Below the pieces are notes generated by a model, which saw only the letters and a list, made by a program, of their open reading frames with translations, made no database searches and was not told where the DNA came from. Position numbers and translations under genes: made by a program. A DNA stretch of 62,352 nt, counting the filler. It is 10 parts of 10 records of this genome, joined end to end, with 100 filler letters (N's around TTAATTAATTAA, not from the genome) between each part and the next. Parts side by side here need not be neighbours in the genome. Positions count along the whole stretch, not along the records: positions 45,893 to 51,165 come from SRR7504441_4348; 9 more parts are not named here. One strand, given 5' to 3'. Positions 8,774-51,265 of the stretch are shown here, one piece after another; within the stretch, counting starts at the first letter, position 1, and each line of letters starts with the position of its first letter.

Positions 8774-8873
8774 NNNNNNNNNNNNNNNNNNNNNNNNNNN
8801 NNNNNNNNNNNNNNNNNTTAATTAATTAANNNNNNNNNNNNNNNNNNNNNNNNNNNNNNNNNNNNNNNNNNNN
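8774..8873. other. Artificial contig linker (N-run + TTAATTAATTAA + N-run)
   Basis: 100-nt N block carrying a six-frame stop cassette. Confidence 0.97.
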
Positions 8874-17072: not shown

Positions 17073-17172
17073 NNNNNNNNNNNNNNNNNNNNNNNNNNNN
17101 NNNNNNNNNNNNNNNNTTAATTAATTAANNNNNNNNNNNNNNNNNNNNNNNNNNNNNNNNNNNNNNNNNNNN
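17073..17172. other. Artificial contig linker
   Basis: N-run/TTAATTAATTAA/N-run. Confidence 0.97.
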
Positions 17173-20787: not shown

Positions 20788-20887
20788 NNNNNNNNNNNNN
20801 NNNNNNNNNNNNNNNNNNNNNNNNNNNNNNNTTAATTAATTAANNNNNNNNNNNNNNNNNNNNNNNNNNNNNNNNNNNNNNNNNNNN
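20788..20887. other. Artificial contig linker
   Basis: N-run/TTAATTAATTAA/N-run. Confidence 0.97.
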
Positions 20888-27295: not shown

Positions 27296-27395
27296 NNNNN
27301 NNNNNNNNNNNNNNNNNNNNNNNNNNNNNNNNNNNNNNNTTAATTAATTAANNNNNNNNNNNNNNNNNNNNNNNNNNNNNNNNNNNNNNNNNNNN
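27296..27395. other. Artificial contig linker
   Basis: N-run/TTAATTAATTAA/N-run. Confidence 0.97.
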
Positions 27396-33262: not shown

Positions 33263-33362
33263 NNNNNNNNNNNNNNNNNNNNNNNNNNNNNNNNNNNNNN
33301 NNNNNNTTAATTAATTAANNNNNNNNNNNNNNNNNNNNNNNNNNNNNNNNNNNNNNNNNNNN
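33263..33362. other. Artificial contig linker
   Basis: N-run/TTAATTAATTAA/N-run. Confidence 0.97.
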
Positions 33363-39482: not shown

Positions 39483-39582
39483 NNNNNNNNNNNNNNNNNN
39501 NNNNNNNNNNNNNNNNNNNNNNNNNNTTAATTAATTAANNNNNNNNNNNNNNNNNNNNNNNNNNNNNNNNNNNNNNNNNNNN
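39483..39582. other. Artificial contig linker
   Basis: N-run/TTAATTAATTAA/N-run. Confidence 0.97.
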
Positions 39583-45792: not shown

Positions 45793-45892
45793 NNNNNNNN
45801 NNNNNNNNNNNNNNNNNNNNNNNNNNNNNNNNNNNNTTAATTAATTAANNNNNNNNNNNNNNNNNNNNNNNNNNNNNNNNNNNNNNNNNNNN
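45793..45892. other. Artificial contig linker
   Basis: N-run/TTAATTAATTAA/N-run. Confidence 0.97.
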
Positions 45893-46150
45893 AACCTAAC
45901 TACACGTCTCTAACACATCACTGGGCTAGACGTTGCTGCAACTCTTTGGAATTGGCATGTCTCCTGCTCGACAAAAATGGTAGTTTTGGCACGTAGCTCT
46001 CGACCGGCCGAACCGTAGCTCAACCGGCCGCTTACTGGGGTAGCTACCTCATCGCCTCGTAACTTGCAGCTGGCGAAAGCTCATTAATTCCTACAGTTAT
46101 TACTTGTACTTGAATTACAGGTAAAAAATCAGTTGACGTCCCGGGAGACC

Positions 46151-47225
46151 ATGCAGGCCACGCTCGACTGCGACATCCAGCGGCTTGAGCGCGAGGGCTC
46201 GCCGCGCAGCTCGGGCTCTGCGGACGAGACCCGGGTCTTCACGCTCTGGGTCAACAACAGGATCGGACCGCCCGAGCTGGGCTGCAGCCTGCCCGAGAGC
46301 TTCCGACTCTCGAAGGGCGAGCTGGCCGATCGGCTACTGCTGGCCACCACCGGCGAGAAGGTGGGCTTTGTGCCCAACGGACACCCTGCGGTGTGCAGAG
46401 CCAATTTAGACGCAGTGCTCGGCCGGCTGCGAGAGGCAGAGCCCAAGCTACGGACAGCGCTGAGCACCATATCAGCTCAAAACCTGTATGAAGGCCAGGT
46501 CCAGGCCGTGCTGGCGTTCATCTGGAACCTGATTCGAGCGTTCGACCCCACGGCGGCCCACGTCTCCAGGCGGGACTGGATCGCCCAGACCAAGACCCGG
46601 ATAGCTGGCGGCGAAGCCAACGCTGTCGGTGCCCAAGGGCCAGCAGTGGAAGCCGCGCCCGAAGCACCTGCGGAGGCACTGTCTGCCCCACACCCGCTCA
46701 AGTCACAAGGTACTTCCATAGTCTAGCAGCTAGTTGAGCCGACGTCGACAGACATCCCGTTTGGGAAGCCGCTCGCTCAGTGGGAAGAGCAAGATCGGGT
46801 CAATGCAGAGTGACTGCCCGAACTGGGCAAATTGAGGCATGTCAGGGCGTTGTTCAAAATGGTCACGCCACGAGAGCGTCTCGACCCGATCGACTTACAA
46901 AATTGGTGATGCGCTGGTGGCTGTTCAGGGATTGTGAGATGTGAGACCGCAGGAATGCTCATAGTCACAGTGCTTCTGGAAATATGAAGGCGTCGGACAT
47001 TGCAATGGCCGTGGATGAGGCCATTGATGCCGCTTGCGCCCGGTTCCTTACGCTCGAGGTCTTCGAGGCTTCGATTGCCATGGGGCTGGCCAAGTCCAGG
47101 TATGCTGAATAGCCTACACTGGTATAAATCAATTTGTGTGCAGACTCGCTCAAATTCTCACAATGGGGCTTGATCAGTGGGTTCTCAACGGTCGGTACGG
47201 CTCGACGACTTATGTGCCGCTGTAG
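46151..47225 (+). CDS. Single calponin-homology (actinin-type) domain protein (~4 introns)
   Basis: ETRVFTLWVN...ISAQNLYEG...VLAFIWNLI; downstream exons are linked by short GT-AG introns to TAG at 47223-47225. Confidence 0.7.
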
Positions 47226-47329
47226 CTCCGAGCAATTGACCAGCAGTTAGTACTTGTGTGATTGATCTTGCAATGAAATAATTATAAGCAGCTAACTAGC
47301 TAGGTAAGCTTTATCAATTTGAATGAAGG

Positions 47330-49354
47330 CTAGCTAGAAGAGCGCCACATGAGATCAGTGCGAATCACAACCTTCTCTTGACAAGTTGCGTCGCTCAAAT
47401 CGCTCGTTAGCACACAGCCTCCGTGAAGAGGCGAATCCGGATGCTCGCCTGCCCACACTTGAATAAAGACCGCAGTCAGCCATGCAGAGAATCACCGTGC
47501 CAGAAGCACACAGCTGCCCCAGCGGGTGGCTTCACATTCGTAGTCAGCCAATCACCCTCGTGCTGTTCAGTCACAAACTGTGTGGCACCGCCTCCGAATT
47601 GATCGGTCAAGTACAGCAGCACCTGGTTCAAAAGGTGAGTTGGGCCTCTTATCTACTCTATACTCGTATCTACTGCAGCGCACCGACATGTGAGAGACAG
47701 CAAGCCCGGAATCGTCTTCTACTCTGGAGGGCTGATCATAATGCAACCCAAACAGATCGCCATGTGAGTACTTATAAACCCGCCACCGTGGGTTGAGTCC
47801 GATTGCGGCAACTCCAGCAGGCGAGCGCGGCATAAATGGGCCAAGCCTACTGAACACAGCATCGGCGATTGAACCAGAGCAGTTGGAAGGAACTCGGAGC
47901 TCGGCCATGCTGTTGCGCCGGACCCCCTGGCGAGCCTGCGCGTAGCCCGCGCTCTCAGCGGCGGCAAGTAGATCCTTGCACTCGGATTGGCTGAGCACTT
48001 GCTCGACAACTATCAGCCCCTTGCAGCGCTGTGATCCCCAGTACTGGCTCGGCATGCCCACAGCTGGCCCGGCCTGCAGAGCGACAGTGTCCGCTGGAGG
48101 GGGCTCCGGGCCTGCACGGGTCAGGATCTGCCACTCGGCCCCCTCCTGACCGTCCTGCAGCGCCAGTGACAGCTGATCCCCTTGTGCTACTGAGAGCAGC
48201 AGACCTGTCTGGCAGGAGCGCAGCCAGTGCCGCTGGTCTCCTGTCGGCTCCAGCCGCCACCTTGCCGGATCGGTGAACCAGTGCGGGCTTGCTAGGTCGA
48301 GCAGCTCGCCCGTAGCGATTACACGGCCGGCGTGCCCCTCCAGCTGTAGGCTGACGCAGCCGTCGGGCAGAACGAACAAGCTGGCCTCCAGCTGCAGGCG
48401 ACTCGCTCCGTGAACCAGCCCAATCTTGGCCTCAGGAACAACTCCGCTATGTCCCAGGATCCGGGCAGCGGCTTCAAGATCAATGCGATCACCGCAAGCT
48501 CGGCCAGGCTGCCTCACCTGAAGAGCGACTCGGGCCTGCTGCAGACTCCCCCGCATGGTCAGACTCACGCAGTGTCTCACCACCCCGCTCGGGGCGCTAT
48601 ACTGGCGGCGCTCGCCGTGCGAGTCTTCCAGCTCGAGCACCACCATCCCGTCCAGTCTTTCCGTTACCCACGCCGGGCATGTAGATGAAGCCCCGCAGGC
48701 CAGGCCATAGAACAAGCTCTGGAAGAGCGGTACCGTCGGCAGGTCGGCAGAGAGCGCGCTCAGGGACAGGCCGGTTTGGAGCGCTGCGCTGAGCTGGCCT
48801 ACCTTGCTTGCCTCCGCCAGCACTGGGATCGGAACCATGAGATCGAGGAAGCCGGCGAGCACGTAGCGAACACCTTTGCTGACAGGGACGCCGCGGTGCT
48901 GGATTAGCTGGCCGTGGAAGATCAGGCCGTCGCCCTCGGCCAGTGAGTGTACTGGCTGATCCTCGTCCTCGAATTGGGTCCCGCCGCCCTCGTACAGGCG
49001 AGGGTCTCTGAGACTCACGATGAACGAGACCACAGAACCGTCGCGGTGCCAGCCGAGCCCCGCCTGCTGGTCGGCCGCGTAACGGACAACAAAGCTCTCC
49101 CGGTGGACCAGCTGCCCGGCCGGCAGCCCGGTGGCCCTCTCCACCGCCTGAAATAGCTCCGAGGCCAGCCACCGGTCGAACCAGGGCTGCAGCTCCGGCA
49201 CCGACCCCACCTCCATGTCCGTCGTGGCCGCCGCCTTGTGCCGCCGGCCCTGGCGCCAGCCCACCTGCTCTGCACGCCGCTCGCAGCAGTCCACCGCCCA
49301 GCCGCAGTCGGCCGGGGCGATCAGGTGCACGATGCTATGGACGGCCATCGTCAT
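47330..49354 (-). CDS. Tandem 2OG-Fe(II) oxygenase: PLOD-like domain, beta-trefoil-like fragment, P4H-like domain (2 introns)
   Basis: Domain 1 FVVRY...HRD...EGGGT.F...H.G..V..G.RY; domain 2 LSQSEC, LNPRWRVYKY, HYD, LLYL, GGAT.F, H.G, K..IRTD after splicing. Confidence 0.85.
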
Positions 49355-49521
49355 TTCTTTGGCTCGAGCGCCTGGGCCTGCTTGCGAGTCTCTGCCAGCG
49401 CGGTCTGCTTGTCGGTGAGGAAGAAGAGCTGGCCCCGCTGCTGATACACTGCCCGGCCCGGCTTGAGGCAGCTCAGCTCCTGCTCCTGCACGCTCAGCGT
49501 GTGCCGGTCCGGCTCCATCAT
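49351..49521 (-). CDS. ASDURF: ASDURF-like (ASNSD1 uORF) prefoldin-like microprotein, 56 aa
   Basis: ELSCLKPGRAVYQQRGQLFFLTDK resembles the human ASDURF core (recalled as [26 protein letters not shown]); its TGA overlaps the downstream ATG. Confidence 0.7.
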   Translation of the reverse strand: MMEPDRHTLSVQEQELSCLKPGRAVYQQRGQLFFLTDKQTALAETRKQAQALEPKK

Positions 49522-49600
49522 CAGTGATTCTGCGTCGAGCGAACGGAAAGGTCGTTGGGATCTCGAGAGCACTGCGGCGCTTACGCAGAGCGGTAAGTGG

Positions 49601-50944
49601 ATGCCGCCCCCTCCCCCGCCACCCCCGCCTCCTCCGCCTCCTCCTCCTCCTCCGCCCCCGGCCGCGGCGCTGGTCCGGGCCCAGCCTGAGGCCGCGCGGC
49701 CGACTCCACCGGCGGCCGCACTGGTCCCAGGGGGCGGGCTGCGCTTCCGGACGCGGCGGCTGGGCGGGTGGGAGCAGCGCGTGTGCCAGCCAGCCACCAC
49801 CGGGCTGATCGTGTGCGACATGGTGCGCGGCCCTGTATGCGCTGCCTAATCAGGGGTGCAGTGGTCAAAGCACTGGTGCAAGGGGGCCACCAGCCGATTG
49901 GAGGAGATCGCCCCACGGCTGAACTTGACGGCGGCCGCACTGAGGGCGGCGGGGGTGCTCGTGATCCACTGCCCGAGCGACGGGGCGCATCACTACGAGG
50001 GCACCCCGATGCGGGCGCTCGCCCGGCAGGCCCCGACCCGCGGGGTCGAATCGCGTGGCATGGACCGCCGGGCGTGGAACAATACTGAGGCCGGGCGACT
50101 GGCCGGGCCGGAGCCTTGTCTGCCGATCAGCGACCGTGACGGCGGGTGCGACTGCCAGCCGCGGTGTGAGGACCGCCGGATTCGGGAGCAGGACTCCAGG
50201 CAGACAGCACTCGTCTCAATTGAACCAGGCGACGCTGTGGCTGAGAACGAGGAGGCACTCGCCTTGCTGCGGCAGCGCGGCGTGCGCGACGTGCTGATAG
50301 CGGGCGTGCATGTGAACATGTGCATCCTGTGGCGGCCGTTTGGGATCAGGAGGCTGCTTGAGTGCGGGTTTAACGTTGTGCTGATTCGGGACCTGACCGA
50401 CTCAATGTACAGCAGCCGGCAGCCGCCTCAAGTGCCGCATACAATGGGAACCGAGCTTGTGCTGCAGCACATTGAAAAGTATTTGGCGCCCACAACCACC
50501 TCCGGCGAGCTGGTCAGGGACGGGGTCGAGATGGAACTGGCCCAGTCGCATCGGCTGCAGGGGATCCCGGATAAGCAATTAAACGATGTGGCGCTGGTGT
50601 GCCATCACATGAGGTTCGCCATGTATTGCGGGAAGTGTTACCTCGACGGTGTGCATTGTCTGTTGCTGGACAAGGACGAGGCGGTGGTGTGCCATCATTC
50701 CAAGTTCGAGACGCTTTGTGGCTCGTGCGGCCGAGTGGACTACCAGCATGTGCGGAGAGTCAGCCTGCCGCAAGGCCGGCTGGTGTGCTGGCACTGCCGG
50801 TTCTTGGCCCACTGCGGTCAGTGCGCCGACGACGGTTCAGTGCATTGTAGGCGCCTCAACAGGTCAGCGATAGAGCAAGCGCACACAGATTATTGCCTCG
50901 GCCGGTATTGGGAGGATCGACTAGCGCAAGATGAACAACCATGA
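49601..50944 (+). CDS. Isochorismatase-like cysteine hydrolase with N-terminal poly-Pro and three C-terminal CxHx6CxxC repeats (1 intron)
   Basis: LIVCDM|WSKHWC, VIHCPS, GVHVNMC, RPFGIR and RDLTD; 39-nt intron with an in-frame TAA. Confidence 0.85.
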
Positions 50945-51165
50945 TCATAACAGCGCGACTTTAGTGCTCGTGCATGGTTTGGTACAGCCATTAGGACCAG
51001 ATTAGGACGTGCTTTCTACACATTAAATAAGCTAGCGCTTCATTTATCTATTTCCAGTGGTCTATAACCTTGCCGTAAATGTTCCCCAAAGGTATCGTTC
51101 CATTCTCAAACCCCTTAATGTTCGATATCGTATAAACAAACTCGTCCTCTCCCCCGACAAAGATC

Positions 51166-51265
51166 NNNNNNNNNNNNNNNNNNNNNNNNNNNNNNNNNNN
51201 NNNNNNNNNTTAATTAATTAANNNNNNNNNNNNNNNNNNNNNNNNNNNNNNNNNNNNNNNNNNNN
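51166..51265. other. Artificial contig linker
   Basis: N-run/TTAATTAATTAA/N-run. Confidence 0.97.

Follow-up and report, generated by a model that had tools for sequence, protein, structure and literature searches.

A prefoldin-like microprotein ORF overlapping the start codon of a 2OG-Fe(II) oxygenase gene in a marine protist contig: a candidate bicistronic locus

We analyzed a stretch of DNA of 62,352 nucleotides (the window), which is a chain of about 10 separate contigs from a binned assembly, and focused on a locus on the minus strand at which a small open reading frame (ORF), ORF1, runs directly into a larger one, ORF2, which encodes a predicted 2-oxoglutarate (2OG)-Fe(II) oxygenase. 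The true context of ORF1 and ORF2 is confined to one contig of 5273 bp (45893-51165), and the coordinates of all features are collected in Table 1. The minus-strand frame ATGATGGAG... opens at 49521 and closes with AAG AAA TGA, the TGA lying at 49353-49351. ORF2 is in another frame than ORF1, and the inter-ORF distance is -4 nt. The original prediction for this DNA had described a 56-amino acid (aa) ORF overlapping the oxygenase ATG as ATGA, with a second in-frame oxygenase ATG 2 nt past the ORF1 stop; on direct reading, the coordinates of the overlap proved exact, and the second ATG was read at 49348-49346.

The frame of ORF1 contains no upstream stop codon as far as an ATG at 49821 and would thus be a 156-codon ORF if the longest start were taken. 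We place the start of ORF1 at 49521, giving a predicted product of 56 aa, because relatives of 52-66 aa start at the same alignment column and because the frame above 49601 is the antisense of a divergent gene on the plus strand. By coordinate arithmetic, the third codon positions of this divergent gene coincide with those of the ORF1 frame, which explains the high GC content at third codon positions (GC3) of the ORF1 frame above 49601. Over 49540-49361, GC3 was 0.87-0.93 in the ORF1 frame and 0.33-0.40 in the ORF2 frame, and over 49360-49136 it was 0.83-1.00 in the ORF2 frame; that is, the coding signal flips sharply from one frame to the other at the junction. We conclude that the ORF1 and ORF2 frames are both coding beyond chance and that ORF1 is a real gene. 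Further, to judge from its sequence, ORF1 is a cistron of its own and not an exon of the oxygenase gene.

A phmmer search with the ORF1 peptide against 1.84 billion representative proteins gave 10 matches at our threshold of E ≤ 1e-3. Eight of these are small proteins of 55-123 aa (best E 1.7e-6), which share a conserved hairpin core around LKPGRAVYQxRGxlFFL; the other two (P0002 and P0003) are repeat proteins, which we rejected as noise. Apart from these two repeat proteins, the search found the motif in no protein longer than 123 aa. The closest relative, P0001 (55 aa), shares 25/44 identical residues with ORF1 in BLASTP (E 1e-16), is nearly equal to it in length, and ends at the same alignment column. 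A profile search added three clear relatives (P0016, P0017, and P0018), and a word-indexed search with the ORF1 peptide returned no candidate. The family is uniformly tiny, with members of 52-123 aa as predicted and a core of about 55-65 aa. Members with a species name are from the green algae Monoraphidium minutum (KAI8475494.1) and Dunaliella salina (DUNSADRAFT_364), from the amoebozoan Planoprotostelium fungivorum (PRP80135.1), and from a record labeled Tisochrysis lutea (a haptophyte); P0008, P0009, and P0005 lie on contigs of 13.6, 3.9, and 3.1 kb, respectively. One relative (P0007) is named "Prefoldin subunit 1" in UniRef, and another (P0006) carries a precomputed PF21975 entry.

We note that the first 52 residues of the Tisochrysis lutea-labeled record are common with P0005 and that P0005 is 86% identical (44/51) to the Dunaliella salina protein up to the residues ERVQ; the labeled record is possibly mislabeled or a contaminant. 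P0001 is placed in one 90%-identity cluster with a bacterial "dihydroorotase" of 431 aa (P0011), in which no similar stretch was seen by eye and which we treated as a clustering artifact rather than as a relative. The only locus of the metagenome scan with a family alignment (L001, 3884-4156) was rejected because a bacterial contig matches there by chance, in a frame that does not code, and one of the two loci in the prokaryote genome contigs (L002, 3001-3510) was rejected as a bacterial false positive of the same kind. In a conserved bacterial gene of planctomycete type, LKPGRTVYLRQG is read in a non-coding frame, which therefore passes the pattern and tblastn filter as a false relative. Among viral contigs, five pattern matches to the ORF1 family were found, none of which was confirmed.

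The AlphaFold2 (AF2) model of ORF1, built from the 12-sequence family alignment, has a predicted local distance difference test score (pLDDT) of 86.2 and contains helices at residues 6-17 and 38-51 and strands at residues 24-29 and 32-37. This helix-hairpin-helix arrangement, as modeled, has the prefoldin beta topology, in which two coiled-coil helices are joined by a single beta-hairpin. When the model was compared with the PDB using Foldseek, ranks 1-10 were all prefoldin chains, namely archaeal beta subunits and chains 1, 6, 4, and 2 of a human TRiC-prefoldin entry. The top match, 2zdi_B, had a TMq of 0.82 and a root mean square deviation of 0.8 Å over 49 columns; for this very small query, the ten matches had probabilities of 0.16-1.00 and E values of 0.02-0.98, with 0/10 at E ≤ 0.001. 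ORF1 thus resembles the archaeal and eukaryotic prefoldin beta subunits of known structure (PDB 2zdi, 2zqm, 1fxk, 3aei, and 6nr8, with 2zdi_B the best) in its order of helix, beta-hairpin, and helix but is about half their length (56 vs 94-114 residues), has much shorter coiled-coil arms, and matches them weakly in sequence. A profile search of the PDB with the family returned archaeal prefoldin beta only (E 0.21 and 0.53). Overall, the coding signal, the relatives, and the predicted fold bear out the claim that the peptide is a real prefoldin-type microprotein, and we conclude that ORF1 is a prefoldin beta-type microprotein whose modeled fold is well supported.

The question of which prefoldin group ORF1 belongs to was addressed by Pfam searches. 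ORF1 matched PF01920 (Prefoldin_2) with 19.3 bits (E 0.0011), under the gathering cut-off of 27.6, and PF21975 (ASNSD1-SEP) with 18.7 bits (E 0.0019), under the cut-off of 27. Over ORF1 and its 11 relatives, Prefoldin_2 matched 10/12 sequences at E ≤ 1, one of which (P0006, 37.8 bits) passed the cut-off, and PF21975 matched 4/12 at E ≤ 1, of which none passed (best 26.3 bits, P0006). PF21975 is the Pfam family built on human ASDURF, and ORF1 matches positions 39-75 of its 96-position profile. The Atlas neighbors of ORF1 are eukaryotic prefoldins of 56-79 aa that mix PF01920 and PF21975; they include a Streptophyta cluster in which 18% of members carry PF21975 and, at rank 12, a chordate "ASNSD1 uORF (upstream ORF) protein-like" cluster, all of these scoring below 0.9 and serving as leads only. 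We consider it plausible, and on the whole probable, that the ORF1 family, by its sequence resemblance, belongs with the lineage of ASDURF, the PAQosome's prefoldin-like subunit. The resemblance to ASDURF that had been proposed for the peptide thus holds to the extent of the PF21975 match and is tempered by a score that lies under the cut-off and slightly below that of Prefoldin_2. It is also possible, if tentative, that ORF1, short and prefoldin beta-like as it is, is no ASDURF ortholog; it could then be a canonical beta subunit that has become shorter or belong to a distinct lineage of mini-prefoldins. This would change the identity of ORF1 only. Such an identity would fit the higher score of Prefoldin_2 in 3/3 sequences that match both families (19.3 vs 18.7 for ORF1, 24.5 vs 21.5 for P0001, and 37.8 vs 26.3 for P0006), the failure of all 12 family members to reach the ASNSD1-SEP cut-off, the UniRef name of P0007, and the restriction of the PDB profile matches to archaeal prefoldin beta. 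It sits less well with the uniformly tiny size of the family, given that the canonical beta chains among the PDB matches have 94-114 residues, with the fact that PF21975 is the only specific family matching, and with the PF21975 content of the Streptophyta cluster.

ORF2 is open from 49354 to 47684 (557 codons) and is then interrupted by two GT-AG introns; its spliced coding sequence (CDS) is 1917 nt long and encodes 638 aa with one terminal stop. Both introns are joints in one 203-nt RNA contig (X1 record 1) from an oligo-dT marine metatranscriptome, and a contig of run X3, the kind of which is on record as "DNA?", lacks 7 nt at 47467, a position within intron 2, in keeping with non-coding sequence. 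RNA contigs cover 47423-47733, 48013-48162, and 48290-48440 only, the last two of these by contigs of run X1. The 3' part of ORF2 is thus transcribed and spliced. Residues 87-171 of ORF2 align to the catalytic core of the procollagen lysyl hydroxylase LH3/PLOD3 in the PDB (E 1.5e-8), including the HxD motif (at residue 103) and the distal His region, and residues 89-170 match PF13640 (2OG-FeII_Oxy_3) with 25.3 bits (E 3.1e-5; cut-off 27). By these alignments, the N-terminal domain is a 2OG-Fe(II) oxygenase catalytic core of the HxD...H type. Unlike LH3/PLOD3, ORF2 has no glycosyltransferase part and has a second, weaker domain at its C terminus, which resembles prolyl 4-hydroxylase (P4H) and is split by the two introns. 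In this C-terminal third, P4H-like motifs extend across three exons with weak piecewise matches; exon 2 matches PF13640 weakly (E 0.04), and BLASTP between the N- and C-terminal domains gave E 0.27. Hence, of the tandem oxygenase that had been proposed, the N-terminal domain is clear, and the C-terminal domain is suggested by motifs and weak piecewise matches.

No full-length relative of ORF2 was found at E ≤ 0.001 when exon 1 (557 aa) was compared with proteins of 306-975 aa. In the Atlas, ORF2 came closest to Pox_C4_C10 (0.87) and assorted 2OG oxygenases (0.77-0.78), all below 0.9 and thus leads only, and an AF2 model of residues 1-185 made without an alignment was unusable (pLDDT 44.5). We also note that the stretch of about 250 residues between the two domains (residues ~180-430; 48071-48820, minus strand) gives a weak hint of a ricin-type beta-trefoil (RicinB_lectin_2, E 0.04). 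Further, the last ~570 nt of ORF2 (47330-47900), which hold the second domain and both introns, have a GC content of 0.50-0.57 and a GC3 of about 0.5, and the GC3 of the first 1.4 kb is well above this, mostly 0.7-1.0.

We next consider the junction. Defining an AT-rich trough as an 80-nt stretch with GC below 0.42, we found no trough anywhere in 47385-50967 and one right after the ORF2 stop (47205-47384, minimum GC 0.30). Further, no TGTAA, AATAAA, or ATTAAA was found in the 700 nt past the ORF1 stop. The claim that neither a terminator nor an AT-rich spacer would fit at the junction is supported: the junction consists of a 4-nt overlap, with no trough and no poly(A)-type motif. As for the AT-rich spacers said to follow other 3' ends, some of those elsewhere are partly linker, as nine identical linkers (N44-TTAATTAATTAA-N44) join the contigs along the window, and several apparent AT-rich spacers in its GC profile are partly made up of them. 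Because ORF1 is followed by neither a trough nor a poly(A)-type motif, transcripts bearing ORF1 most likely run on through ORF2. On balance, we lean toward the interpretation that ORF1 and ORF2 form a bicistronic mRNA of the green-algal type. The 5' end of this mRNA would fall between 49820 and 49522, no more than ~300 nt upstream of ORF1, in a tiny bidirectional promoter region that the mRNA would have in common with the divergent isochorismatase-like gene; ORF1 and then ORF2 would follow, and the 3' end would lie in the AT-rich sequence past 47330.

The closest known kind of locus is found in green algae. Gallaher et al. 2021 (PMC7896298) describe, in the sections that bear on this point, hundreds of green-algal loci with small, closely spaced ORFs, and passages of the preprint by Duenas et al. 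2024 (PMC11291117) describe Auxenochlorella loci, some of them with an overlapping ORF1 stop and ORF2 start, report that leaky scanning was demonstrated in vivo at bicistronic loci of green algae, and give weak ORF1 start contexts as the rule in the algae studied. As in the loci described there, a small conserved ORF1 immediately precedes a larger, functionally unrelated ORF2 that is on the same strand and in another frame, at a very short or zero distance; in our case, ORF1 is separate, with its own TGA and 56 codons, the distance is -4 nt, and GC3 switches at the junction. The present locus differs from the algal loci in those passages in that its second ORF1 AUG is in a strong context rather than a weak one and in that the single transcript is a proposed one. 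ORF1-ORF2 would most likely be a member of this known class of bicistronic loci in which the small ORF comes first, an arrangement with clear precedent. In the main text of PMC7896298 and PMC11291117, as distinct from their supplementary locus lists, the word "prefoldin" occurs 0 times, and no literature linking ASDURF or prefoldin to algal or protist polycistronic loci was found.

With regard to the host, TGTAA is the poly(A) signal of green algae. It was found 12-114 nt past the stop codon at 6/14 ORF ends examined in the window (3797(+), 8551(+), 24476(-), 33444(-), 44936(-), and 56485(+)), which hints at a chlorophyte host. Window-wide, TGTAA was no more frequent than expected (17 on one strand and 25 on the other vs 26 expected), and none was found within 200 nt of the 3' end of the oxygenase gene.

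The order of the start codons suggests how ORF2 would be translated from such an mRNA. There is no minus-strand ATG between 49821 and 49521, and the only ATGs from the start of ORF1 to ORF2 are at 49521, 49518, and 49354. On an mRNA starting in 49820-49522, the ORF1 AUGs would consequently be the first two and the ORF2 AUGs the third and fourth, and ORF2 could be reached by leaky scanning, with 40S subunits passing the ORF1 AUGs. The first ORF1 AUG (49521) is in a weak context, with C at -3 and A at +4. Alternatively, ORF2 could be reached by reinitiation at the AUGA overlap, which suits termination-reinitiation.

Several observations weigh against this interpretation. The AUG order fits leaky scanning only weakly because the second ORF1 AUG (49518) has A at -3 and G at +4 and because no inner ATG would be expected in ORF1 by chance: the probability of zero is 0.65 under codon shuffling and 0.86 under synonymous resampling, for which reason we rejected ATG depletion in ORF1 as evidence of leaky scanning. 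By the general Kozak rule, which may not be that of the host, A at -3 with G at +4 makes a strong start, at which leaky scanning would be inefficient. As for reinitiation, 56 codons are long for the process to be efficient, and the termination upstream ribosome-binding site (TURBS)-type elements of caliciviruses and influenza B combine an overlapping stop/start with an upstream UGGGA complementary to 18S rRNA. The AUGA overlap of such elements is present at ORF1/ORF2, but the UGGGA motif is absent: no minus-strand TGGGA lies within ORF1 (49351-49521), and the nearest are at 48452-48456 and 49725-49729. The green-algal precedent may itself not apply because the algal affinity comes from TGTAA alone, and membership of ORF1 in the ASDURF group misses the Pfam cut-off, with Prefoldin_2 scoring higher. 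In a window-wide screen for other pairs of a small and a large ORF, four pairs were found, three of which look low-complexity and non-coding by eye, leaving ORF1-ORF2 as the only bicistronic-looking pair in about 61 kb. The relatives P0005, P0013, and P0016 diverge completely right after ERVQ, which suggests from the alignment that their genes contain an intron at this position, within about one codon of a candidate GC-AG donor at the junction. Finally, seven metagenome/metatranscriptome runs hold 0.05-0.08 of the sampled words, and in 4/4 of the runs that were mapped, 48667-49673 was without RNA or DNA read cover; the gap speaks neither for nor against a shared transcript, the single transcript is inferred, and the assembly has no independent support at the junction.

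Three other explanations of the junction have to be weighed. We consider it unlikely, if worth serious attention, that ORF1 and ORF2 are overlapping but separate transcription units. The start site of ORF2 would then lie inside or just upstream of ORF1, the ORF1 transcript would end inside ORF2 or run through it without serving ORF2 translation, and the ATGA would be a by-product of extreme compaction. Overlapping untranslated regions (UTRs) are common in compact eukaryotic genomes, and spacing on this contig is tiny elsewhere too, the divergent start codons being only 79 nt apart. In addition, a second ORF1 AUG in so strong a context would starve ORF2 on a shared mRNA. On the other hand, there is no visible 3' end signal for an ORF1-only mRNA, as neither a trough nor a TGTAA/AATAAA-type motif occurs within 700 nt of the ORF1 stop, and a start site for an ORF2-only mRNA would need to fall within the 170 nt of ORF1 coding sequence. 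Passages of PMC7896298 further describe green-algal loci that are "incompletely polycistronic" and give monocistronic as well as polycistronic transcripts, and this too would be compatible with separate units. Exceedingly improbable, in our view, is an assembly artifact, in which a chimeric join in the metagenome contig, at the junction or close to it, would have brought together two ORFs that are not genomic neighbors: the window is a chain of binned contigs and 48667-49673 is without cover in the four mapped runs, but the exact ATGA, the two intact frames, and the uniform GC-rich coding composition on both sides make a chimera improbable, and there is no repeat or composition break at the junction.

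The original prediction had also pointed to a possible 47-nt GC-AG intron joining both ORFs, and a single fused protein made in this way is, in our assessment, very improbable. Splicing of 49381-49335 would remove the ORF1 stop and give a product in which one junction codon links the first 46 prefoldin-like residues to residue 8 and onward of the oxygenase. Such a splice would keep the frame, the candidate equals the RNA-supported intron 2 in length (47 nt), and the divergence of P0005, P0013, and P0016 about one codon from the candidate donor hints at a family intron position. Yet the candidate is one of 43 in-frame G[TC]..AG combinations of 25-200 nt at the junction, which is no better than chance; 38/43 use GC donors, and the 5/5 options with a GT donor begin inside the conserved VYQ core, leaving no usable GT donor. 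The two RNA-supported introns are both GT-AG and have a GC content of 0.48 and 0.51, compared with 0.62 for the candidate. The splice would also cut predicted helix 2 (38-51) at residue 47. Further, ORF1 and its closest relative (55 aa) stop at one and the same alignment column, and none of the relatives is fused to a larger protein. A loose screen of the whole window gave 8306 frame-joining patterns, 6001 of them with GC donors; patterns of this kind are therefore abundant, and we dropped the screen as a splice-site model because it is too unspecific.

Of the other features of the contig (Table 1), the predicted isochorismatase-like gene has a poly-proline N terminus (20 prolines) from 49601, 79 nt off the ORF1 ATG, and an inferred 39-nt GT-AG intron (49823-49861), which contains an in-frame TAA, would join this N terminus to the main ORF. 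No gene for URI, UXT, PDRG1, PFD2, or PFD6 was found on the 5.3-kb contig.

Table 1. Features of the ORF1-ORF2 locus, its contig, and the linkers of the window (positions are those of the window)
Feature	Position	Strand	Evidence or remark
ORF1, 56 codons, predicted prefoldin beta-type (ASDURF-like) microprotein; stop included	49351..49521	-	Frame, GC3, relatives, fold
ATGA stop/start overlap	49351..49354	-	ORF2 ATG 49354-49352, ORF1 TGA 49353-49351; direct reading
ORF2 second in-frame ATG (codon 3)	49346..49348	-	A at -3, G at +4
ORF2 exon 1, 557 codons	47684..49354	-	N-terminal lysyl/prolyl-hydroxylase-type 2OG-Fe(II) oxygenase domain, ~250-residue middle, start of second P4H-like domain
ORF2 intron 1, 61 nt, GT-AG, GC 0.48	47623..47683	-	Joint in RNA contig X1 record 1
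ORF2 exon 2, 42 codons + 1 nt	47496..47622	-	Core strand motif of putative second oxygenase domain
ORF2 intron 2, 47 nt, GT-AG, GC 0.51	47449..47495	-	Joint in RNA contig X1 record 1
ORF2 exon 3, stop TAG at 47332-47330	47330..47448	-	Translation; single terminal stop in spliced CDS
AT-rich 3' region after ORF2 stop; presumed common 3' end	47205..47329	-	Only AT-rich trough of the ORF1-ORF2 unit
Head-to-head spacer, 79 nt, ORF1 ATG to divergent plus-strand ATG (49601)	49522..49600	.	Presumed shared promoter and 5' leader
Candidate 47-nt GC-AG intron (original prediction)	49335..49381	-	Judged a chance pattern, not a feature
Isochorismatase-like gene, divergent	49601-50944	+	Isochorismatase Pfam E 2.2e-7 in 49850-50944
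Unassigned ORF	46151-46726	+	Same contig; no Pfam match
Linkers	8774-8873, 17073-17172, 20788-20887, 27296-27395, 33263-33362, 39483-39582, 45793-45892, 51166-51265, 58752-58851		Gene neighborhoods across linkers not real

The closest individual case to the bicistronic interpretation of ORF1-ORF2 is the human ASDURF-ASNSD1 bicistronic mRNA, on which, as passages of PMC13303939, PMC10893143, and PMC8567396 report, ASDURF is translated from an upstream ORF. Set beside those passages, both cases have a beta-type prefoldin-like microprotein 5' of an unrelated enzyme gene. The partner here is a 2OG oxygenase, however, and ORF1 has 56 aa and a match below the Pfam cut-off. Passages of PMC10893143 and of the preprint bioRxiv 10.1101/2023.12.13.571423 describe an Arabidopsis ASDURF ortholog, At1g49245, which has its own gene identifier and co-purifies with UXT/URI. 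As described there, At1g49245 resembles ORF1 in that it is short, prefoldin-like, from outside the animals, and annotated as no more than a generic prefoldin, and the Streptophyta clusters of 56-79 aa among the Atlas neighbors of ORF1 (leads only) point the same way; it differs in being a gene of its own and not an upstream ORF. The named relatives of ORF1 are likewise separate protein records. The proposal that evolution has conserved the placement of ASDURF as an upstream ORF and exchanged the partner is therefore unsupported, as far as these passages on At1g49245 and the separate records go. In its broadest form, this idea would hold that in distant eukaryotic lineages the 5' cistron of an mRNA for two proteins encodes, repeatedly or from an ancestral state, an ASDURF-type mini-prefoldin (with ASNSD1 in vertebrates and with a 2OG oxygenase in a marine protist), that the partner is exchangeable, and that a format of low, scanning-limited co-expression is what is selected in this chaperone subunit; we regard it as improbable.

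At present, ORF1-ORF2 stands as a well-supported annotation with a proposed expression model. The prefoldin-like proteins of 52-85 residues found here are mostly unnamed or "hypothetical" and are easily missed by gene callers that keep the longest ORF per transcript. If the two ORFs are indeed on one mRNA, the locus would be a clean natural case of a eukaryotic bicistronic gene with an AUGA overlap in an uncultured marine protist, with a first cistron in the same small prefoldin-like group as human ASDURF, which is among the best-known functional upstream-ORF proteins. Bicistronic expression of the green-algal type would thereby gain one more gene pair and perhaps one more lineage, and the question of why tiny chaperone subunits become upstream cistrons could be put to a concrete example.

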